From NCBI GenBank assembly GCA_012646185.1, contig GCA_012646185.1_4706.1: a stretch of DNA of 64,000 nt, one strand, 5' to 3'. A program made the position numbers and the translations under genes. This document shows positions 1-55,606 of this stretch, piece by piece. Below the pieces are notes generated by a model, which was not told where the DNA came from, made no database searches, and saw nothing but the letters and a program-made list of their open reading frames with translations. Source of the stretch: a phage. The stretch's first letter is position 1. Each line of letters begins with the position of its first letter.

Positions 1-3000
1 CCAGAACCAATTATAACAGAATAACTAGCAGCTGTTACCGTTATAACCGAAATTACTGTTCCGCCAGCTCCTCCCCCAGCGCCAAAAAACGTTTCGCTGT
101 TGGAATAAGCCTGACAGCCACCGCCGCCACCGCCGCCACCGGTTATCGTTACTCTAATCCGTTTTGTTCCTTGTGTTGGGGTGTACGTCCCTGACGATGT
201 GAAAACACGCATATTCAGTAAACGCCCGACATATCCGCTAGAATCGGCTAAACCAAGATCTTTAGCTGCTAACGTGATATTAGCTGTACCATCAAACGGT
301 TTACCGTTAATCGTGCGCGCGGTCTGCAACTTCGTCGCCGTTGCTGCGTTTCCTGATGTGTTCTGGTTTCCCGCGGCGTTAACACCTGGCAGATTGATGT
401 TCGCACTACCATCAAAAGAAACCCCACCAATGGTGCGGGCTGTTTGCAGTTTTGTCGCTGTGGCGGCATTCCCCGTGGTATTTTGGTTTCCTGCGGTGTT
501 AACACCCGGCAGACTGATATTAGCCGTACCATCGAACGCAACACCGCCGATCGTCCTTGCTGTTTGCAGTTTTGTCGCCGTGGCGGCATTACCGGTTGTG
601 CCTTGGTTACCGGTGGTGTTTACCCCAGGTAGGTTGATATTTGCCGTACCGTCAAATGAAACGCCGCCTATCGTTCTTGCCGTTTGCAACTTCGTTGCGG
701 ATGCCGCATTCCCTGTGGTGTTTTGGTTACCTGTTGTATTCACACCTGGGATACTATCCTTAGATGTGTAGATCTGTGCCCATTCCGACCATTTCGCATC
801 GGTTGTATCGCGACGTGAACGTAAATAAGCCGGAGCGTGTGCGCCAGAGGTACCTGACCAACCAACGAGGATTTCACCTTCACCTACCGATGAAGCACCT
901 TTGAGGTGAATAACGTTACCATAGGCGGTTGGGTAGCCGTTACTGTACGCTTCATACATCTGGATACCGGTATTACTACCTTGGGTCGCATTAGCTAACG
1001 CGGTAACACGACCTTTGGAGGCGAGAGCGGTAATACTGAAGCTAATGTCCTTAGTACCGTCAAAGGCGACCCCATTAATCTTCCGTGCTGTTTGGAGTTT
1101 CGTGGCGGTAGCCGCATTACCAGAGGTACTCTGATTACCTGCTTTGTTCACGCCAGGCAAATCAATGTTGGCTGTTCCATCAAAGGACACGCCTCCTATG
1201 GTTCTCGCTGTCTGAAGTTTTGTTGCTGAGCCAGCGTTTCCGGAAGTACCTTGATTACCTGCCGCGTTGACACCTGGTAGGTTAATGCTAGCAGAGCCAT
1301 CAAAAGAAACTCCGCCGATCGTGATCGGTGTTTTCAATTTCGTGGCTGTCGCGGCGTTACCCGTCGTGTTCTGGTTGCCTGTCGCATTAACGCCAGGTAA
1401 TGCGACATCCGCTGTTCCGTCAAAGGCAACGCCACCGATTCTACGTGCAGTTTGTAGTTTGGTTGCACTAGCAGCGTTACCGCTGGTATTCTGGGTGCCA
1501 GCTTTGTTAACACCGGGGAGATCGATGTTAGCAGAACCATCGAAGCTGACGCCACCTATCGTTCTTGCGGTAGCGAGTTTAGCTGCTGTGGCTGCATTAT
1601 TACCCACTTTCAGCCAATCATCCCATGGACCATCCTGGCCGTTCCATGATGCCGTTAAACTACGTACGTAAATATTGCCGGTACGTACAGTGTAACGTTG
1701 CGTTCCACCGAATTGTCCAGCAGGGAGCACTTCAAGGTAACCTGCGGCATTTGCTTCAGGGAAATTGTGGGCGACGTCCGCGTTCGTTGATACTGGTTTA
1801 GACCAAATACCCACAGACGCTTCAACCGGACCGTAGGTATTCAGATTTGCGTCGGTGGGGAGCTGTCCTCGAAAACGCTGGAATAGTGTTGCCGATAACC
1901 GCAACAATGCTTGCATGCTTTCAATGCTAGATTGCTGCAGTAACGTCCGTGCTGTCGGTGTGATCGTCGCTAAATCAACCTTATTCGTATCGGTAAAATA
2001 CGGGAATTTGTTTGCTGATGTTGCTAAACCTGAAAAGGCGGTCAGTAATGCGTTAAGGGGCTGCTTCCCAGCTAACGCATTTGTTACCGTCGTTGCGAAA
2101 TTAGGATCACTTCCTATAGCTCGAGCCAGTTTATTAAGTGTATTTAGCGTCGCTGGAGACGAGTCGATCAACGCCGTGATCGCACGCATCACGAATTCCG
2201 TGTTGGCAATCTGTCGACTGCTGTCGTTCACTACAGCCGTAGGCGCTGCTGGGATACCGGTGAACACAGGGCTATTAAGATCTGCCTTGAGCGCGATGAG
2301 ACGTTTAAGTGCGTCGACATCGACTTTCAGGTTTTCCCATCCGATGAGAGAACCACCGCTGCTGGCATGGTAACGGTTGTACCAGAAGTCACCGTTAACG
2401 CCTAAAAAGAATATTCCCTTCTCTTCGTTTTGCGGGCCGGAACTATTTCGTGACGAGCTGATGTAATTGATTTCAATAAGACCAGTAAACGTCACTCCTG
2501 GGATTATTTTGTTGTCTCCAGCTGACTGTGATACCTGGTAAATCCCCGGGGTTGCGGCTTTAACCCATGTTAAGAATTCTGTTACTCCAGCGGTACCGCT
2601 AAAATTCTTAACGTCGGTAAGTATTGCCCCATAACCGAACATACCGGGTAGAGCCACTCGTCCGCCGGTACGGTCACGAATATCTGTCGCAACAACAGGC
2701 AATTGTTTACGAACGGCATTAACCGCCTTAGGTGTGGCCGATTTTGTCTCGTCGTCGCTATCGGTTTCATTACTTAGAATAGTTAAACCGCGTGTAGCAG
2801 TAGTTGCATCAGGAAGAAATGCGTTATCCAACACCTTAAGCTGTACTGCACTCGTATTACTAACAACGACATGCACCTGACAGTTAAGAACGCTGGTTGC
2901 ACCTTCGGCAGGCGTAGGCTTATATCTTTCTGGCGCACTGCAGACGGCAATCAGAACATCTTGGTCATCGTACAGACCGATCTCACGTACCCAGAACCCA

Positions 3001-3254
3001 CCTTGACCAGCAGGAATAATACCCTCAACGATAATCCTGGTTGTGCTGTCACCATCCGCATGGATATTAGAAACTTCCCCACGATAAACTTCGTGAACAA
3101 GCGCTGTTTGGCTGGCGTTCGGGGTTGGGATCGAGCCGTTACCATCACCAACGGCAAAGTGTGTGATTTTTAGTTTCTCACCGTCGGGAAGTAACGCAGC
3201 GGTGATACGTTCTGCTCCTTTATCGGTAACTACCGTTATATATGCTGTACTCAT
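1..3254 (-). CDS. long tail fiber protein, partial (C-terminus runs off the window start): N-terminal domain, lambda Stf-like conserved region, two blocks of fiber repeats
   Basis: Manual minus-strand translation from ATG at 3254: MSTAYITVVTDKGAERITAALLPDGEKLKITHFAVGDGNGSIPTP. Region 2100-2340 reads DLNSPVFTGIPAAPTAVVNDSSRQIANTEFVMRAITALIDSSPATLNTLNKLARAIGSDPNFAT, closely resembling lambda Stf (DSPALTGTPTAPTA...QIANTAFV...DALNTLNELAAALGNDPDFAT). Repeats read GNAATATKLQTARTINGKPFDGTAN. Frame checked at several points but not end to end. Confidence 0.8.
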   Translation of the reverse strand, partial: MSTAYITVVTDKGAERITAALLPDGEKLKITHFAVGDGNGSIPTPNASQTALVHEVYRGEVSNIHADGDSTTRIIVEGIIPAGQGGFWVREIGLYDDQDVLIAVCSAPERYKPTPAEGATSVLNCQVHVVVSNTSAVQLKVLDNAFLPDATTATRGLTILSNETDSDDETKSATPKAVNAVRKQLPVVATDIRDRTGGRVALPGMFGYGAILTDVKNFSGTAGVTEFLTWVKAATPGIYQVSQSAGDNKIIPGVTFTGLIEINYISSSRNSSGPQNEEKGIFFLGVNGDFWYNRYHASSGGSLIGWENLKVDVDALKRLIALKADLNSPVFTGIPAAPTAVVNDSSRQIANTEFVMRAITALIDSSPATLNTLNKLARAIGSDPNFATTVTNALAGKQPLNALLTAFSGLATSANKFPYFTDTNKVDLATITPTARTLLQQSSIESMQALLRLSATLFQRFRGQLPTDANLNTYGPVEASVGIWSKPVSTNADVAHNFPEANAAGYLEVLPAGQFGGTQRYTVRTGNIYVRSLTASWNGQDGPWDDWLKVGNNAATAAKLATARTIGGVSFDGSANIDLPGVNKAGTQNTSGNAASATKLQTARRIGGVAFDGTADVALPGVNATGNQNTTGNAATATKLKTPITIGGVSFDGSASINLPGVNAAGNQGTSGNAGSATKLQTARTIGGVSFDGTANIDLPGVNKAGNQSTSGNAATATKLQTARKINGVAFDGTKDISFSITALASKGRVTALANATQGSNTGIQMYEAYSNGYPTAYGNVIHLKGASSVGEGEILVGWSGTSGAHAPAYLRSRRDTTDAKWSEWAQIYTSKDSIPGVNTTGNQNTTGNAASATKLQTARTIGGVSFDGTANINLPGVNTTGNQGTTGNAATATKLQTARTIGGVAFDGTANISLPGVNTAGNQNTTGNAATATKLQTARTIGGVSFDGSANINLPGVNAAGNQNTSGNAATATKLQTARTINGKPFDGTANITLAAKDLGLADSSGYVGRLLNMRVFTSSGTYTPTQGTKRIRVTITGGGGGGGGCQAYSNSETFFGAGGGAGGTVISVITVTAASYSVIIGS
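270..770 (-). repeat. tandem ~123-nt (41-aa) tail fiber repeats, distal block (Phage_fiber_2-like: ATKLQTARTIxGVxFDGxANIxLPGVN)
   Basis: Period visible on both strands; the antisense frame stays open, giving the artefactual plus ORF 181..771. Confidence 0.8.
1020..1615 (-). repeat. tandem ~123-nt tail fiber repeats, proximal block
   Basis: Same repeat unit as 270-770, separated from it by a ~250-nt non-repeat insert (780-1000). Confidence 0.8.
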
Positions 3255-3260
3255 GGTGTT

Positions 3261-3788
3261 TTATCCTGGATAAATAGTGATGATATCACCAATGACGGTT
3301 GTGGCACCGGCGTAAAGATGAGCCGGAGATACGTCGTGTTGGTTTGTCACAGTAAGATCCAATCGACCACGCCAAACCATGGAGGTATTCGCGATGGGGA
3401 TAGAAATCTTTTTGGATATATCGTCACGAAAATCAATAACAGTGGCGAGGGTAACCGCATCAAAATCAACGTCGGGGTCAAAGACGAACCCGTATTGATC
3501 TGAAATAGCCCGAATAATCGCATGTATAGTTGTTGTCTCAACGGACTCTAAAACGATTTTTACCGGTATTCCTAAAAATGCCTTCGCGATATCGCGTCGA
3601 GCGTAAACGATAAAACTTTCACCACACCACTTTGTTCCTTCATTTGCTGTGACGATCACTTTTGCCCTGTTAGCACCAGAACTCCCATCCAAGGTTAATG
3701 TAAGATCGGAGTTGCTGAACACGCTACCGTTACGTTGGTTTATCAACGTAATCAGTTCGTCTTTCCATGGCGGGTAAAGTGAACGCAT
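3261..3788 (-). CDS. hypothetical protein (175 aa); N-terminal module shared with products of 7605-8435 and 44535-45986
   Basis: ORF with GGAGGAGGG Shine-Dalgarno before ATG at 3788; shares WKDEL...YxRRDIAKxFxGIP...YGxVFD pattern with two other proteins; sits immediately upstream of the tail fiber. Confidence 0.65.
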   Translation of the reverse strand: MRSLYPPWKDELITLINQRNGSVFSNSDLTLTLDGSSGANRAKVIVTANEGTKWCGESFIVYARRDIAKAFLGIPVKIVLESVETTTIHAIIRAISDQYGFVFDPDVDFDAVTLATVIDFRDDISKKISIPIANTSMVWRGRLDLTVTNQHDVSPAHLYAGATTVIGDIITIYPG

Positions 3789-3994
3789 AAGCGCAACCCT
3801 CCTCCAATAATCAAATTAAAATGTAAAACGCCTCGAAACCGGAGTGCGATTCGAGGTAAGCGTAAACAGTCCAGACGACCACATAAAATTCCGCGCATAT
3901 TGCCCCTCTACCCCGACAAAGCGAGATAGAGGGAGGATAACACTTTGTGCTCTGTGGCACTTCAAAGTTCGTGGGGCGGTAACCGCCCCATCGG

Positions 3995-6900
3995 TTAAAT
4001 TGTTGGTTTTACATCGCGTAATAGGGCAATATAATAGCCTAATCCTCGGAGGATCTCTCCACTCCAGAAACCAAAATACATTCCGTCTCTGCCGAGATTA
4101 GCGCTATCTGGTGCAGGACTCCACCCACCATTCATTACGTCATCAACGGTGTAATGGTTGATGTAGTTCTCAACGATTTCGTTATACGCATTAACAGCAA
4201 CAGAATAACCTTTATCGTTGGGATGTCCGTACAACATTGCTAACGACGCACCCGCCAACCATAATCCTGCCATATGACCAGTAAAATCATTAGGGATAAA
4301 AGCGGGAGGTTTATCCATCGGAAAATCCGTAGGAGATTGATAAGCGTTTTCCTGTTGATACGTAAACAAGAAATCAATCCAATGGCTGATGTAAGTGGTT
4401 AACTTCTCAGGGACGGCTAAACCACGATCGAGCAGTCCAGCATAAAGCCGCACCGCTGAAAAGAAAGCCCTCGGCTGATAACCAGACCATGCCGTCTGAT
4501 CGCCGAAGTGGTACATTGTAAAATCATTAACTTTTGATCCGCTTGGCGCATCCCAACGATCCCACACGTACGCACTTGCCCCCGGCCCTAAAACCCCGAA
4601 TTTCTGATAATACCACTGCTGCGAGTCATACCAGAAATTCACAACATTCTGAATCATGAGGTCACGTCGTTCAGTCGATACGTCCATATCCAGGAAGACC
4701 CATGGATGTTGGTAGCCGGGATAAGGCTGACCACGCCAACTGTCGAACGTCGGTGCGTTAGGGATATAGTTGTTAGAGAACGGAATAATACCCGGAGTAT
4801 AAGGCAACGGATCGAGACGTTGGTTGACAATCGTACAATCGCCAACACGTAATGTTCCCTCCGCCTCAAAGGTTGCTTTTAACGTAAACAGCATGGTATA
4901 TCCGTCATCCGTGGTGTAAGTTGACGGTGGATTGTTGATGGCGTAAAGCTTAAATACCCCTTCAGCGATATCGCTGTCGTCAGGCAAGAACAGAATTTCA
5001 GTTGATCCATCCCCCCACACAGGTGCAGAAGGTTTAGGGTCAGTATCAGCGTGGCCCGGTTGATACCCTGAGAGCCTCCATCCGTTCGCCGAAAGCGTCA
5101 ATGTATTTCTTGCTGTGGTGGCCGGTAGCATATACCACCATCGCCAACCATTTGCATCTTCTACACGAACGTTGTAGTCAATCGACGCGAAATAACTGAC
5201 CTGTCTTACGATCTGTTTTGCGGTTGGATTGAATTCAAATTGCCCGCCTGCCGCAGTAAGCTGCGCTTTTAAGAACAACCCATCCCAGGAATCTTCCGCT
5301 GCTTCGCTGAATTCGGTTGTGATGGCGACATCATCTTTCCAGCCGACTTTATCAGCCGATATCAACACAGAACCTGTAACAGCATCACCGGTTGGTGTTG
5401 AAGCTTCATCAACCGCATCAGCAGGAATCAACGAGCCTATTTTGAAATCCCATCCTTTCGGTTCAGCGCTGGAAGGTAATACCAGCTTGTACGTTTTGGC
5501 GTTCGCTTCGGTTTTGTCCAAAGAAAGCGATAATGAGATCTCAACCGGAATTGCAACACCCGCTGCATCTTTACCGCCGCAGGTTACACGAAGAATTGAA
5601 TCACGATTGACGCGGAACGGAATAGCCTGCTGTTCAAGGTAAATTTGTGCTGAAGATGCTTGAATCACAATCCAACCATCGGTATCACGCGTGATTGTGA
5701 ACGGTGCTTTCGATGGGTATGTATACGTGTAAGCGATACCGTCGGTGTCGTAACGATCGGTTCCTTTTACTTGACGGAAGAACTTATCGTTGGCGTCGAT
5801 ACGGGTATATTCTTCAATCGTAAACAAAGATGCCTTGTACGCTTTCTGATAACGCTCCTGCTGCGTTAAACGATATAAGGTGTAGGCTGCTTCACAAAAC
5901 CACTGTTCAGCGTCTGACGCGTTTCCCATGTAGTCTCTGGTGACCGGTACCTGGATCGGTCGGTTATGCTGACACTCGTTCGTTTTGATAAGGTATCCGC
6001 CATATTCAACAGGAACGCGGGGTGCCCACGCAACCAAATAAGAACCGTTGACGGATTTATCTTTGAGTACGATGGTACCTACTTCATCGTCAGTACACGC
6101 TTCAAGATCGTCCCCGTCAGCACTTACGTAACGTTTTGTGCGTAACGCAACTTTCTCGATAGGGAACACCGTACCCTTTGTATCCCAGTCAATCGTCCCA
6201 TCATCATTGGTTTTGAACACATCGGCGTTCAAATTCTGCCAGCCGAGTTTACCTTCATAGACCTGAACAACAAGATCCATGTATTCCCCGAACGTTGGTG
6301 TACCGTGTGTTATTTTCCCGATACCGTTGGTGAATGTAACCGCTGTGTCATGGAAACCCCCGTGTGTTGGGTAATCGTCTTTTGCAAGAGGATAATGGGC
6401 CAACACCGGTTGCTTACCATTAACGATCCAGTTAGCGATCCAGCGTGTCGGTGTATCCGGTGGTTCAAGGCCTGCGTAGAACGCTTTTATATACGCATCG
6501 AACGATGCCTCTGCTAATGTGAGATAATGCGCTTTAAGCTTGGTATCATCCGTTGTATGGCTGAATATACCCGCACCCAGAATTAACAACGACTGTCCTT
6601 CTGTTGTTGCGTCACCATCCGGTTGTGCTTCCTGTCGTGTTGCTGCAATGAAATGACGGTTGTTTACCATGACCCCGCTTTCATTTAACACGTAATGATC
6701 GGTTTCTGGGTCGGTAAACGTTCCTGTGTTTCGGGTTAAGAATCTTGCATGACCATAACCAACGAAATTAACCGGCGACGCTGTAATCATCCATTTACCG
6801 ATAAGTTGAGCAACATCATTATAACGCTCGGATGCGGTGATTTGTTTCACGTACCAGTCTTTATGGTTAAATGTCCAAAGCAGGAAGTAATAAGTTGTAT

Positions 6901-8493: not shown

Positions 8494-8555
8494 CAAAAAA
8501 AAAAAAATAGGAAAATAGGAAAAACGGTGTTCACCCCTAAAAAGGATGAACACCG
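8494..8555 (-). terminator. intrinsic terminator for minus-strand transcript: 9-bp stem hairpin (8525-8555) followed by a T14 run (A14 on plus, 8494-8507)
   Basis: Inverted repeat cggtgttca/tgaacaccg with 13-nt loop, directly after stop of 8576-9154 gene. Confidence 0.6.
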
Positions 8556-10848: not shown

Positions 10849-10883
10849 ACAGCATAAACCCTTCCTGCTTTACGCAGGAAGGG
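10849..10883 (-). terminator. GC hairpin (ccttcctgc/gcaggaagg) followed on minus strand by GTTTATGCTG box
   Basis: Inverted repeat 10859-10868/10874-10883 with 5-nt loop, between stop of 10898-11395 and start of 10547-10804. Confidence 0.45.
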
Positions 10884-10897
10884 CATACGGATTTGTT

Positions 10898-15625: not shown

Positions 15626-15703
15626 GATTACTGTCCTTTTGAAATATGTTTAGATAAGGAGGATTTACCGGGTATTAAAAAGTTATTTGGTGTGTAATGT
15701 TTT

Positions 15704-17710: not shown

Positions 17711-17738
17711 CGGCATAAGCCCTCCCATGTCGGGAGGG
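17711..17738 (-). promoter_or_regulatory. GC hairpin CCCTCCC/GGGAGGG followed on minus strand by CTTATGCCG box
   Basis: Arms 17720-17726 and 17732-17738; same box as at 32318-32326. Confidence 0.4.
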
Positions 17739-23784: not shown

Positions 23785-23891
23785 GTTGTCGTTTCCTCCA
23801 TACGAAACCAAAAAATTGTCAAAATGTACATCAGCATAACGCCCGTGCCCACCCGCGATGGGAGGGACACAGGCAATACGCTTTTATTTCG

Positions 23892-32317: not shown

Positions 32318-32347
32318 CGGCATAAGAGCCTCCCATTACGGGAGGCT
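32318..32347 (-). promoter_or_regulatory. GC hairpin (agcctccc/gggaggct) followed on minus strand by CTTATGCCG box
   Basis: Arms 32327-32334 and 32340-32347; box identical to that at 17711-17719. Confidence 0.4.
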
Positions 32348-33900: not shown

Positions 33901-33913
33901 GTTAACCTCAATA

Positions 33914-33954
33914 CGAACATAACCCTCCTCCTTCCCTTACGGGTTGGAGGAGGG
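33914..33954 (-). promoter_or_regulatory. extended GC hairpin (ccctcctcc/ggaggaggg with inner ccc/ggg stem) followed on minus strand by TTATGTTCG
   Basis: Inverted repeat 33923-33931/33946-33954; the following ATG is out of frame with the downstream gene. Confidence 0.4.
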
Positions 33955-33963
33955 GATATACTG

Positions 33964-34329: not shown

Positions 34330-35655
34330 TCACTTCAAAAGCTTAGACACCGCCATGCTTCGCGCCATCGCAACGTCATACGCATCCATGATCGCGTCAC
34401 CGATAGCGGTATGACGGATCAACGGAATACCCATATCTGGATACTCTTTGGTGCCTAAGATGGATACCGGTTTGTCTTGATACGCGGCAACCATCGAACG
34501 AATATCCTGAACCTGGTTATAACGGCAGATTGGTTTGAAGCCCGCTTTACGGAACCAATGCTCTAATTGCGGCCAATCTGTTTCACCACGAGCAAGATAA
34601 TAGAAGGTATCTTTACCGTAGTATTCGGTCATTTTGTCACGAATACTGTTGACGAACGCATTTACTTCGGCGATGGCTTCTTTATAACCCATTGCCTTAC
34701 AATGTTGAAAACAATAGTCGCGCGCTTCCTTTGGTGCTTTGGTTTGCCACCATTCTACTGTTGATTCACTGATACGACCACCGTCAGCGATTTGACCATG
34801 AACGTCAGGGAAGATATCTATACGCGGACCGTTAACAATGGATTCTGGATTAGCCAGATCGAAGAACACGATACCGATTTCCAGCAATACTCCATTCTTT
34901 TCCAGACTAAGGTTTTCAACATCTAAACAAAATGCGGGCTTCTCTACCGCTAACGGCTCGAACGAATGGTTGCTGGTATCCGATTCGGTTTTAAGTTCGA
35001 CGACAGCCGGATCGGTATCCGTAGGTTTCAGTTCTACTACAGCATCATCGAGTCCCGATAACGAAAAATAGTCTTCGAAGAAATCGGATATCGTCATACC
35101 ATGCAAATTGATATCGCAATCTTCCAACCATTGCTTCAACTGGTGCTCACCGGCATGAATCGCTAAACGGCACGGTCCGGAACGATCATCTAGCGCTGCA
35201 TCGATCCAGAAGAAAGCGCGTATAAGTAAGTAAGGATTATACTCCGCGATGATTTCTTGGCTAGCCGAGAAATCGTACACCATTAGTTGTATTATTCCCT
35301 TACGCGTGTTATACGGATCAACTTTCAATCGACGCACTATTTCTTCTACGAATTCCAACGCGCGCGTGTACGAGGTGGACCCACCTTGTTCATACGAACA
35401 TATACCCGTCAAAAGTTCCTTATAGGACGCATATGGAACCATAGGCGATAATTTGTACGACAGTTCAGTATTGTAATTATCGCATAATTTCTTCGGGGCG
35501 ATAGCATCCTGTATCGCTGTAATAAACGCCGGTCCATCAATATCAAACAACCATCCTTGACGCCGGTATGCAGTGTACCGTAATAACGCACCGATAACTG
35601 CCTGGGGCGGTGTATATTCTTTCCCGTTAATTTCAAACAGTAGTTTGCTCATCAT
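34330..35655 (-). CDS. protein with C-terminal DEDDh 3'-5' exonuclease domain (DnaQ/RNase T-like) and unknown N-terminal domain
   Basis: Exo I-like FCLDVENLSL, central YYLARGETDW, Exo III-like HTAIGDAIMDAYDV in the C-terminal ~190 aa. Confidence 0.6.
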   Translation of the reverse strand: MMSKLLFEINGKEYTPPQAVIGALLRYTAYRRQGWLFDIDGPAFITAIQDAIAPKKLCDNYNTELSYKLSPMVPYASYKELLTGICSYEQGGSTSYTRALEFVEEIVRRLKVDPYNTRKGIIQLMVYDFSASQEIIAEYNPYLLIRAFFWIDAALDDRSGPCRLAIHAGEHQLKQWLEDCDINLHGMTISDFFEDYFSLSGLDDAVVELKPTDTDPAVVELKTESDTSNHSFEPLAVEKPAFCLDVENLSLEKNGVLLEIGIVFFDLANPESIVNGPRIDIFPDVHGQIADGGRISESTVEWWQTKAPKEARDYCFQHCKAMGYKEAIAEVNAFVNSIRDKMTEYYGKDTFYYLARGETDWPQLEHWFRKAGFKPICRYNQVQDIRSMVAAYQDKPVSILGTKEYPDMGIPLIRHTAIGDAIMDAYDVAMARSMAVSKLLK

Positions 35656-35667
35656 AACACCTTTTCA

Positions 35668-40357: not shown

Positions 40358-40388
40358 AACGCAGCATAAACCCTCCCCGAAGGGAGGG
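40358..40388 (-). promoter_or_regulatory. GC hairpin CCCTCCC-TTCG-GGGAGGG followed on minus strand by TTTATGCTGCG box
   Basis: Arms 40371-40377 and 40382-40388 with a TTCG loop in minus sense; directly after stop of phosphatase gene; the ATG begins only a 10-codon ORF. Confidence 0.45.
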
Positions 40389-40398
40389 CGGTTAACGT

Positions 40399-44534: not shown

Positions 44535-45986
44535 ATGAAACTTAAACAAAGCTGGAAAGACGAACTTCTCGCGTTAGTAAATAGCAAAAACAGCTTACAG
44601 CTGACATTAGCCGACGTAAAATTTGAACTAACTGAACCGGTAAGCGAAGTGCCCGGAACGGTTGTCGTTACGATCAAACCGAACGATGATAGCCGTTACT
44701 TTAACGAGCAGTCTCTGACCTACATCCGTCGAGACATCGCTAAAAACTTCACCGGGATCCCGTTACGGGTTATCGTTAAAAATGATACCGCCGTAAGGGA
44801 TATCATCAATACGATTGCTGAACGTTACGGATTGGTATTTGACACAACCATCGACTTCCTCGAATCCGAGCTGAATAAGCAGATTACGTTCGAAGACACC
44901 GGTATTAAAGACATTACGGTTCCGGTTGCAAACACGTCTTATGTTTGGGCTGGTAATCTTCAGTTCAATATCGCTAACGATACGTTGAGCTTGATTACGA
45001 TCATCAAGCAAACCAATCTTACGAATCTGGTTTATCTGGATGGTGTTGAATCTAACACATCGGGTTCGTTACTATTAGCAACGACCTCGGTTATCGGCGA
45101 AAACGGAAATGCCGAAACAACTGAAGGTGTCCTTGACGCCGCGTACTTCCAGAATATCCTGAACGTCATGGTTCGTTATGGTGATATTACCAGCGAACAA
45201 ATGCAACAAGCAATGCAGACAATTAACGGAAGCGAAGACGCTCGTAGAGTAGAGGTGCGGTCATACGGTGACGCCGAATTACTGGTAACCACCAAGAAAG
45301 ATTGGGTTATCGGTAGCCTTAAGGGTGCTATGGTTGTTGGTCACGCTTCACCTAAACCAATCCAATACGTTCTTAAAACAAAAGGCGGCACCATTATATT
45401 GTCATTAGATGGTTGGACAAATGTCAATATCGATTGGGGTGATGGGAATAAGACGACGCAGGACTCAGGCGATAATGAATATCAGCACAATTATGCGGAC
45501 ACTACAGAACGTACGATCGTCGCTACGGGTACCCCTACCAACGTTGGAGATACAGACGTACAGCAAAGCTTCACCGGTGGTAACATCACTGAAATCGTTG
45601 ACTGGAACAACGGATTACCTAAGGCCCCATCATTACTTGCAGCGAACAGTTTAACTAAGGTTCCCGATTATATCCCGGCATACTGGACATCGTTAGAAGG
45701 TATGTTTACGCGATGCAGCGCTATTAACGACGTGAACATCACCAAATGGAACACCCGCAACGTTACTTCAATGAAGGACCTCTTCTACGGTTGCGCTACG
45801 TTCAACCAACCGATCGGTTCGTGGGATGTTTCGTCTGTTAAGAATGCAGACAATATGTTGTCTGGGTGCTTCGCGTTCAATCAGGATCTGAGTGGTTGGA
45901 CATTCCCGGCAGGCACTTCACACATCAACTACGACGCCATGACCGCCGCATGGCAGGCTGGTTATAAACCACACTTCACCGAGTAA
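44535..45986 (+). CDS. two-domain protein: shared N-terminal module plus C-terminal DUF285/BspA-like repeats; candidate fiber or adhesin
   Basis: N-terminus parallels 3261-3788 and 7605-8435; C-terminus has repeats MFTRCSAINDVNITKWNTRNVTSMKDLFYGCATFNQPIGSWDVSSVKNADNMLSGCFAFNQDLSGW. Confidence 0.65.
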   Translation: MKLKQSWKDELLALVNSKNSLQLTLADVKFELTEPVSEVPGTVVVTIKPNDDSRYFNEQSLTYIRRDIAKNFTGIPLRVIVKNDTAVRDIINTIAERYGLVFDTTIDFLESELNKQITFEDTGIKDITVPVANTSYVWAGNLQFNIANDTLSLITIIKQTNLTNLVYLDGVESNTSGSLLLATTSVIGENGNAETTEGVLDAAYFQNILNVMVRYGDITSEQMQQAMQTINGSEDARRVEVRSYGDAELLVTTKKDWVIGSLKGAMVVGHASPKPIQYVLKTKGGTIILSLDGWTNVNIDWGDGNKTTQDSGDNEYQHNYADTTERTIVATGTPTNVGDTDVQQSFTGGNITEIVDWNNGLPKAPSLLAANSLTKVPDYIPAYWTSLEGMFTRCSAINDVNITKWNTRNVTSMKDLFYGCATFNQPIGSWDVSSVKNADNMLSGCFAFNQDLSGWTFPAGTSHINYDAMTAAWQAGYKPHFTE

Positions 45987-46044
45987 AAAAAAAAAAAAAT
46001 AGATAGCATATCTTCCTCCCTACCCATAACGGGCGGGGAGGAAG
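45985..46044. terminator. bidirectional terminator at convergent junction: A15 run (45985-45999) plus extended GC hairpin (46012-46044)
   Basis: cttcctccc/gggaggaag arms with inner ccc/ggg stem; T15 in minus sense follows the hairpin after stop of 46062-46400. Confidence 0.55.
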
Positions 46045-46061
46045 GTTTATGTCAATTTAAC

Positions 46062-51668: not shown

Positions 51669-51711
51669 CAACGACATAATTCCCTCCCACCTCCACATGG
51701 GAGAGGGAGGG
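51669..51711 (-). promoter_or_regulatory. extended GC hairpin CCCTCCC/GGGAGGG (inner ctcc/ggag stem) followed on minus strand by AATTATGTCGTTG
   Basis: Arms 51682-51688 and 51705-51711; directly after stop of 51725-52087. Confidence 0.4.
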
Positions 51712-52530: not shown

Positions 52531-52574
52531 TATCAGCATAAACATCCTCCTCCCACCACATGGGCAGGAGGAGG
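52531..52574 (-). promoter_or_regulatory. GC hairpin (cctcctcc/ggaggagg) followed on minus strand by TTTATGCTGAT box
   Basis: Inverted repeat 52546-52553/52567-52574; box about 80 nt upstream of the SD-supported start at 52467. Confidence 0.4.
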
Positions 52575-55206: not shown

Positions 55207-55561
55207 CATGTCTAACACGCCCCTGAACGACTTTCTTAAGACAAACCCCGATGACCTCATCCACGATCTTGATTTCAGGAACGTTGTTGAGATGCATCTG
55301 GAATATTTCAAAAATGCCGGACTGGTCTCTACGATAGACATACCACCCGAACGCGCCTACGAATTCGATGGTAACTTTTATGGATTGTGTCGTGTTCTGC
55401 TCGGCGAGGGTAGCGAACCAATGCACTGGATAACCATGAGACTCAATGGTTATCGCGACCCTACGGAATACACCGCCGATGTTCTAACCATGAAGATTGT
55501 CGATACAAGCGCAATCAACACATTAAAACAACAGTACCGCACAATCCACTACAGCGCTTAA
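55207..55561 (+). CDS. hypothetical protein (~118 aa), lone plus-strand gene inside the minus block
   Basis: ATG at 55207 preceded by GAGGT; followed by hairpin 55567-55595; could be spurious. Confidence 0.35.
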
Positions 55562-55566
55562 GATAA

Positions 55567-55606
55567 CCCTCCCACAGCGTAAAGCGTAGGGAGGGCATTT
55601 ATGCCG
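55567..55606. terminator. GC hairpin CCCTCCC/GGGAGGG (15-nt loop) followed on plus strand by CATTTATGCCG
   Basis: Arms 55567-55573 and 55589-55595 between convergent ORFs 55207-55561 (+) and 55627-56907 (-). Confidence 0.45.

Follow-up and report, generated by a model that had tools for sequence, protein, structure and literature searches.

A three-hairpin spacer in the fibre locus of a Goslar-like jumbo phage: probable origin by fusion of two older intergenic regions

The window (the whole 64,000-nt stretch of phage DNA analysed here) belongs to a close relative of Goslar (Escherichia phage vB_EcoM_Goslar), a jumbo phage of E. coli that forms a nucleus and belongs to the Chimalliviridae; over positions 3200-4600 the two are 96.9% identical at the nucleotide level. 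The genes around this region all lie on the minus strand, in the order 1198-aa ORF, 206-nt spacer, 175-aa ORF and tail-fibre gene, the two ORFs corresponding to Goslar gp092 and gp091, respectively (Table 1). The gp091-like protein matches the Pfam family DUF7941 (PF25613, E = 1.2e-15), as does the product of the upstream gp093-like gene, and a Pfam search with the gp092-like protein gave no matches. Goslar gp092 has been described as a DUF7941 fibre protein with carbohydrate-binding/glycosidase domains, and gp091, gp092 and gp093 are among ten Goslar DUF7941 proteins proposed to make up a host-recognition 'fibre cloud' (bioRxiv 10.64898/2026.04.21.720040). The gene downstream of gp091 starts at 3254; its N-terminus is that of the tail-fibre gene, and its counterpart in Goslar and in related loci is annotated as tail fibre (PF12571).

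Several other features of the window may be recorded here. Identity to Goslar falls to 83-89% in positions 1-1900, as against 94-96% elsewhere, and the tail-fibre gene carries in that stretch several internal repeats of 68-75% identity with cross-matches to various parts of Goslar gp090. Indels with respect to Goslar are found at 15657/15704, 21444 and 34949-35664; gp108 (~390 nt) and gp120 (~710 nt) are missing from the window, and one segment of ~700 nt has been replaced. Within the last codons of the gp092-like gene, in antisense orientation, there is a near-consensus promoter of the sigma-70 type (4008-4035, plus strand; TTTACA-16 nt-TATAAT, 11 of 12 matches), which is probably irrelevant because the phage does not use host RNA polymerase.

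Table 1. Coordinates of the spacer, its component features and flanking genes, and of members of the terminator-hairpin family elsewhere in the window
Feature	Position	Strand	Basis or remark
gp092-like gene, 1198 aa	3995-7591	-	stop TAA at 3995-3997; ORF list and Goslar comparison
Spacer, 206 nt	3789-3994	- (sense)	between gp092-like and gp091-like ORFs
Hairpin 1, GGGGCGG-TTA-CCGCCCC	3973-3989	-	starts 5 nt past gp092 stop; -16.5 kcal/mol, z = -3.9
Orphan RBS TTTGAAGTG	3958-3966	-	locus alignment; TTTGGAGTG in Goslar, L003, L004
Relic of last codons and stop of a DUF7941+DUF285 gene	3941-3957	-	window CCACAGAGCACAAAGTG, Goslar TAGTAGCATAATCGTA, intact relatives GTAGCAGCATAA-TCGTA
Hairpin 2, 12-13 bp stem, loop CUUUGU	3903-3934	-	-20.2 kcal/mol, z = -3.7
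TATG no. 1	3896-3899	-	4 nt past hairpin 2, in GCAATATGCGCGG
GAATTTTATG block with TATG no. 2 at its end	3882-3891	-	candidate late promoter, predicted +1 at G3882
Hairpin 3, CCTCGAA/TTCGAGG, structured 12-nt loop	3831-3856	-	-11.1 kcal/mol, z = -1.9
U-rich tail UUUUACAUUUUAAUUUG	3812-3828	-	behind hairpin 3
Shine-Dalgarno GGAGGAGGG of gp091	3797-3805	-	AGGAGGG invariant
gp091-like gene, 175 aa, DUF7941	3261-3788	-	ATG 3786-3788
Family hairpin	10853-10884	-	hairpin + TTTATGCYGT
Family hairpin	17714-17738	-	hairpin + TTTATGCYGT
Family hairpin	23827-23874	-	hairpin + TTTATGCYGT
Family hairpin	32321-32347	-	hairpin + TTTATGCYGT
Family hairpin	33910-33955	-	hairpin + TTTATGCYGT
Family hairpin	40365-40389	-	hairpin + TTTATGCYGT
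Family hairpin	46013-46050	+	hairpin + TTTATGCYGT
Family hairpin	51675-51705	-	hairpin + TTTATGCYGT
Family hairpin	52537-52574	-	hairpin + TTTATGCYGT
Family hairpin	55554-55596	-	hairpin + TTTATGCYGT

The first-pass annotation of this DNA had described three hairpins in the spacer, and an inverted-repeat search of 3780-4000 finds exactly these three. The perfect GGGGCGG/CCGCCCC hairpin nearest to gp092 (hairpin 1) has arms at 3972-3980/3982-3990 that are 100% complementary, and its loop on the coding strand is TTA. The ccctcta/tagaggg hairpin (hairpin 2) extends to 12-nt arms (3904-3915/3922-3933) that are 83% complementary as DNA, both mismatches being G-U pairs in the sense RNA, and the arms of the third (hairpin 3; 3831-3837/3850-3856) enclose a 12-nt loop. 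Also as annotated, GGAGGAGGG is found as a Shine-Dalgarno sequence, 8 nt ahead of the gp091 start codon, and there are two minus-sense TATG motifs, at 3896-3899 and 3882-3885; a third, at 3786-3789, overlaps the start codon. Calculated folding energies place hairpins 1 and 2 beyond chance and hairpin 3 at the margin (z-scores in Table 1); for the spacer as a whole z = -2.7, and of 200 shuffles 3 reached an equally stable fold. The Goslar record has terminators annotated elsewhere in the genome and none in this spacer, and an Rfam scan of 3000-5000 (E <= 10) gave no relevant covariance-model matches.

Comparison with relatives (about 25 loci, drawn from IMG/VR, from metagenome contigs, and from contigs encoding the gp091 homologues of 35 protein clusters) revealed the spacer as a fusion of two parts, each of which has a separate existence in other genomes. 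In one arrangement (type B: L004/L038, L011, L012 and L013), the gap between gp092 and gp091 holds only hairpin 1 and GGAGTGCTTATG: the end of gp092 (...ACAATTTAA) is followed after 5 nt by hairpin 1, then by ATGA(ACT)TTGGAGTGCTTATG and a gp091 that starts MSTVYPGW. The 5' part of the spacer in the window (3958-3994, native to the 3' flank of gp092 and holding, behind the gp092 stop, hairpin 1 and an orphan RBS) is equivalent to the complete, ~45-nt spacer of these relatives. In the other arrangement (type A, seen in 17 loci: L021-L028 and L030-L037), gp091 is preceded by a gene that bears no relation to gp092 and whose product is a DUF7941+DUF285 protein, 584 aa long (249 aa in L021) and ending ...GTAGCAGCATAA. 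After the stop codon of this gene come TCGTATTATCC, hairpin 2, (T)AATATG, GGAATTTTATG, hairpin 3 with its U-rich tail, and GGAGGAGGG, leading into a gp091 that starts MRSLYPPW. The 3' part of the window spacer (3789-3957) is this ~160-nt cassette, with, in order, a relic of a gene end, hairpin 2, the invariant GAATTTTATG, hairpin 3 with the U-rich tail, and the real RBS. In most Goslar-like genomes the cassette sits behind the DUF7941+DUF285 gene, and it always accompanies type A gp091. The two designs are combined in the window, in Goslar, and in L003 and L010. It therefore seems very probable, from the alignment of these loci, that the spacer is a recombination scar in which two older intergenic regions have been joined end to end. 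Beyond what had been read from the window by itself, the ~160 nt that remain after hairpin 1 and the orphan RBS thus appear to be an imported cassette with its own history.

The remains of both partners can be recognized at the junction. In type B relatives the same GGAGTG runs directly into CTTATG, the gp091 start; the orphan RBS of the window (TTTGAAGTG) is a decayed form of the Goslar TTTGGAGTG. Directly behind the orphan GGAGTG, Goslar has GTAGTAGCATAATCGTATTATCC, which matches the end of the DUF285 gene, including its stop codon, at 22 of 23 positions, and the relic in the window has decayed further than that of Goslar (AGCACAAAGTG versus AGCATAATCGTA). This further decay accounts for the high variability of the relic (3941-3957), which no other part of the spacer shows. 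L029 presents the mirror case: gp093 and gp092 are gone, and what is left in front of a type B gp091 is hairpin 1 and the RBS, along with 13 nt from the end of gp092. The three hairpins within 206 nt are thus not one designed unit: the scar has brought together the hairpins that lay 3' of gp092 and 3' of a gene since lost, and next to them the gp091 leader. Two further observations concern these loci. The junction in L029 (1440-1475) has a perfect 9-bp palindrome, TTGGTTATG-ATGAC-CATAACCAA, overlapping the 13-nt gp092-end relic, and in L004 (3001-3528) the gp091 homologue is itself recombinant, its N-terminal half being of type B (MSTVYPGW...) and its C-terminal half nearly identical to the type A of the window.

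Hairpin 1 is kept in 9 of 9 loci of the gp092 type, 5 nt past the gp092 stop and with a folding energy of -10 to -17.5 kcal/mol. In L013 a wholly different 8-bp stem occupies the position (the hairpin was folded variant by variant, and the L013 stem differs in length). Because a hairpin is kept everywhere, even as a different stem in L013, its structure is under selection. The first-pass annotation took hairpin 1 for a likely terminator, a suggestion that finds little support here: the stem is strong and conserved, but the downstream flank (ACGAACTTTGAAG, with ACGAAC following the stem) has no U-tract and no TTAT tail, and transcription appears to continue beyond it, since in type B genomes the gp091 start codon is ~20 nt past the hairpin, which leaves no room for a promoter before gp091, and transcription must therefore pass through. 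Hairpin 1 may thus be at most a partial or leaky terminator, or else a hairpin giving 3'-end protection or stability. It also lacks the C/U-rich 5' arm of the phiKZ terminator motif, its arm polarity being the opposite. Among the three hairpins, the one that resembles the known class of chimallivirus terminators is hairpin 2, and the U-rich tail belongs to hairpin 3, not to hairpin 1.

The class in question was defined in phiKZ, in which the terminator motif 5'-BCCYCCCCHWWDGGGRRGGBYTTATKYYGT-3' was found at 61 sites mapped by ONT-cappable-seq (Putzeys et al., 2024, PMC10914365); the same conserved hairpin with TTAT is a terminator motif in 201phi2-1 (PMC11512511). GC-rich hairpins with a TATG within 5 nt number 12 on the coding strand of the window, compared with 2.4 ± 1.5 in shuffles, and Goslar has about 20-25 copies (~20 of them strong) with the consensus stem-UUUAUGCYGU, only some of which are annotated as terminators. 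Genome-wide, they often take the form CCCTCC.../...GGGAGGG, then TTTATGCYGT, past stop codons. This family is the E. coli-chimallivirus version of the phiKZ/201phi2-1 terminator motif. Like its members, hairpin 2 is GC-rich, lies in sense orientation shortly past a stop codon (11 nt past the DUF285 gene stop in relatives), and has a C/U-rich 5' arm (CCCUCU...) and a G/A-rich 3' arm (...AGAGGG), so that CCCUCUAUCUCG/CGGGGUAGAGGG agree with the CCYCCC-type 5' and GGGRRGG-type 3' arms of phiKZ; it also has a TATG within 4 nt. It differs in its longer stem (12-13 bp) and in lacking the U-run and CYGT present in every clear member: the flank GCAATATGCGCGG does not contain (Y)TTATKYYGT within 0-3 nt of the stem. 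When scored with a position weight matrix for flanks, built from 19 Goslar family members and combined with folding of each site (family stems are of 7-17 bp), this flank gave -10.4, whereas family members give +1.9 to +14.7; among all TATG sites in the genome its score lies at the 41st percentile. Hairpin 2 thus looks like a divergent relative of the phiKZ-type terminator family, and not a clean member of it.

The two G-U pairs of hairpin 2, together with a weaker fold in antisense (-14.8 versus -20.2 kcal/mol), indicate that its role is to be sought in the sense RNA. When the 12 distinct cassette sequences from the 17 type A loci were aligned, 97.9% of its cells were paired, with four pairs varying on one side and one on both sides, and several changes swapping wobble for Watson-Crick pairs or the reverse. 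For hairpins 2 and 3 together, 95.5% were paired over the variants, as opposed to at most 65% with the partners slid; in a shuffle control the percentage paired was not significant (56 of 500 shuffles). Given how closely related the variants are, such covariation statistics carry little weight. The 3' arm of hairpin 2 is poly-G in L025-L028 (~1440-1455) and L033 (~1385-1400), ranging from G10 to G13 between otherwise identical contigs, which may be due to assembly noise or may mark a tract prone to slippage ahead of the fibre operon. Two spacers of the window contain a long homopolymer: an A13 on the plus strand (T13 on the coding strand; 8495-8507) past the canonical terminator upstream of the gp093-like gene, and an A15 at 45985-45999, directly past the gp161-like stop codon.

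Conservation in the cassette is highest not in its hairpins but in the GAATTTTATG block between them, which is unchanged in 12 of 12 distinct variants. At 10 nt, it is the longest invariant run (permutation p = 0.0004), exceeding the Shine-Dalgarno AGGAGGG. TATG no. 2 stands at its end, while TATG no. 1 has been lost (as TATA) in L035-L037. In phiKZ, late promoters of the non-virion RNA polymerase consist of TATG with the +1 at G, the TATG being necessary but not sufficient (Yakunina et al., 2015, PMC4666361), and the same core and +1 are given in PMC12809450. A published Goslar RNA-seq time course (bioRxiv 10.1101/2023.09.20.558163) located transcription starts for just two genes, chmA and its neighbour encoding a non-virion RNA polymerase subunit, and no RNA 3' ends. 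Since the most conserved block ends in the core of the phiKZ late promoters, we propose GAATTTTATG as a candidate late promoter with its +1 at G3882, bearing in mind that TATG is the phiKZ consensus and may not be that of Goslar. The case for the TATG is one of conservation; its frequency is not significant: two in 206 nt, where ~0.8 would be expected (there are 254 minus-strand TATG in the 64 kb). The window has one copy of GAATTTTATG, a search of the rest of the 64 kb gave no recurrent promoter motif resembling it, and TATGCG is not enriched in Goslar intergenic regions (6%, compared with 9-10% in coding sequence). Both TATGs of the spacer resemble phiKZ late promoters in lying ahead of virion genes on the coding strand, and no. 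2 has an AT-rich upstream flank; unlike the mapped +1 sites of phiKZ, the start in the spacer is predicted from sequence alone.

The main rival to the promoter reading is an endonuclease site of the RNase E type: GAAUUUUAUG, which is AU-rich and would be single-stranded, could be where a polycistronic gp092-gp091 RNA is cut, with hairpin 2 protecting the 3' end so formed. An invariant AU-rich block flanked by stable hairpins would suit such a site well, as would our failure to define an independent promoter motif; the fact that the block ends exactly in the promoter core TATG speaks against it. That the block is unchanged even though the upstream gene differs in the common arrangement fits both readings. 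We regard processing at this site as distinctly unlikely, and continue to prefer GAATTTTATG as a candidate promoter.

Hairpin 3, which follows the block, is less regular in its occurrence and form. It is absent from L025-L028 and reshaped in L021; in the 10 variants that have it 91% of cells are paired, with one two-sided change. Its general shape, together with the U-rich tail, recalls a Rho-independent terminator, from which it differs in its weak stem, 12-nt loop and interrupted U-run (the tail reads CG-UUUU-ACA-UUUU-AAUUU). Hairpins 1 and 2 do not have a U-tract at all, although hairpin 1 has the strong GC stem of such terminators, and a terminator scan with a loop limit of 3-8 nt called none of the three hairpins on the coding strand. 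Hairpin 3 and UUUUACAUUUUAAUUU together are, we suggest, shaped like an intrinsic terminator or attenuator. The three hairpins could alternatively be taken together as tandem, fail-safe terminators, efficient enough to insulate gp092 fully from the fibre operon, for they are all on the sense strand downstream of a stop codon, the last has a U-rich tail, and hairpin-type terminators are abundant in chimalliviruses. This seems very doubtful: hairpins 1 and 2 are without a U-tract or TTAT tail, the first must be read through where gp091 lies ~20 nt beyond it, an efficient stop at hairpin 3, just 25 nt before the RBS, would silence gp091 and the tail fibre, and the tandem layout is already explained by the fusion of two spacers.

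The clean presence or absence of the cassette between gp092 ends that are otherwise 99% identical might suggest that the ~160 nt missing from type B loci had been inserted between gp092 and gp091, as a non-autonomous, MITE-like element or as the gene for a structured non-coding RNA. However, a blastn search of phage records with the spacer gave Goslar as the sole match, and the cassette had no matches in E. coli genomes, so it is not host-derived. A pattern scan of IMG/VR with GGAATTTTATGYGGTCG found the cassette only in Goslar-like genomes, nine other matches being chance occurrences outside the cassette context. Because it is also present in single copy in both Goslar and the window, a mobile-element origin is unlikely, and there are no terminal inverted repeats, no target duplication, and no matches in Rfam (E <= 10). 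The left end of the cassette shows homology to a gene's 3' end, and the cassette always travels with type A gp091. All told, we consider insertion of an element or RNA gene highly improbable, and retain the fusion of two spacers as the explanation. We give almost no credence to a small protein encoded by the spacer (48 aa from ATG 3898 or 22 aa from ATG 3884), for although ORFs of 48-49 aa are present, GAGG lies 6 nt ahead of ATG 3898 and two window-Goslar substitutions are synonymous in that frame, this putative RBS is buried in the stem of hairpin 2, only 8 aa of the first ORF remain in L021, L030 and L033, its ATG is lost in L035 and its frame is shifted in Goslar and L003, and the second is cut to 5 aa in L030 and L035; a conserved small ORF was accordingly rejected, with frames truncated or lost in L021, L030, L033, L035 and L025.

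How might such a composite spacer work? The explanation that we favour, and hold to be probable on balance, combines a chimeric origin by modular recombination in a host-recognition locus with roles for its parts as leaky terminators, promoter and attenuator; the individual functional assignments, taken one at a time, range from rather unlikely to evenly balanced. The region upstream of type A gp091 would have been imported from a genome in which the DUF7941+DUF285 gene preceded gp091. In the sense RNA, hairpins 1 and 2 would fold where the gp092 message ends, acting as leaky terminators or in 3'-end protection. The non-virion RNA polymerase of the phage might then re-initiate at TATG no. 2 (+1 = G3882), yielding a 94-nt leader for the operon of gp091, tail-fibre and assembly genes, and hairpin 3 with its U-rich tail could stop some transcripts early, releasing a short RNA of ~60 nt (the predicted distance from G3882 to about U3822) and so tuning fibre expression. 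The first-pass annotation had supposed that part of the spacer may regulate the fibre-proximal genes. The presence of sense-strand, RNA-type hairpins upstream of the fibre genes, and of a TATG matching the phiKZ late-promoter core, agrees with that supposition, the particular roles being those that we infer.

The closest kinds of known element would be the phiKZ-type terminator hairpins, the TATG late promoter and the 5'-UTR short RNAs, with the PeSLs of T4-like phages as an analogy. In phiKZ, a 5'-UTR short RNA of about 71 nt arises by premature termination (T102/PHIKZ221; PMC10914365), and in 201phi2-1 one such RNA, sRNA005, lies upstream of a tail gene (PMC11512511); such RNAs are abundant in both phages, and are recognized by a transcription start followed by a termination site within 250 nt, upstream of an ORF. 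The spacer resembles them in its sequence of predicted promoter, ~60 nt, hairpin with U-rich tail and RBS of a virion gene. It differs in that its layout is purely predicted, in having no sequence similarity to them and a different family of downstream gene, and in that hairpin 3 is not universal among the relatives. The PeSLs are cassettes of promoter plus stem-loop at module boundaries (Arbiol et al., 2010, PMC2839356; Comeau et al., 2014, PMC4122927). Like them, the cassette is a regulatory unit of stem-loops and promoter at a gene-swap junction, travelling with its neighbour gene. However, PeSLs are repeated and recombine with each other, whereas the cassette is single copy in Goslar and in the window, only the general hairpin+TTATG family being repeated, and its junction looks like one of microhomology (TGGA..TG) adjoining the hairpins and not within them. 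One might go further, and see in the cassette a portable expression unit of the host-range operon, in which a GAATTTTATG promoter and hairpin 3 as a conditional terminator would make a ~60-nt leader RNA that sets fibre dosage, and which would move intact whenever the upstream DUF7941 fibre gene is exchanged, as the chimallivirus counterpart of the T4 PeSL; we think this unlikely.

In sum, the spacer is a regulatory one of ordinary kind, and modular recombination within a host-range locus accounts for its unusually dense hairpins. There is nothing in it to surprise a specialist; its importance is modest. Nevertheless, it shows the phiKZ/201phi2-1 family of terminator hairpins (stem plus UUUAUGCYGU) to be conserved in an E. 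coli chimallivirus, and it provides, in GAATTTTATG, a concrete and testable candidate for a late promoter where only TATG is a known determinant. For those who would engineer the host range of Goslar, it marks a natural module boundary. More generally, it is a base-level example of how Goslar-like phages exchange their tail-fibre genes and those of the newly described DUF7941 'fibre cloud': crossovers seem to have taken place just inside the 3' ends of genes, leaving short relics behind, while each downstream gene retains its own package of hairpin, candidate promoter and RBS.
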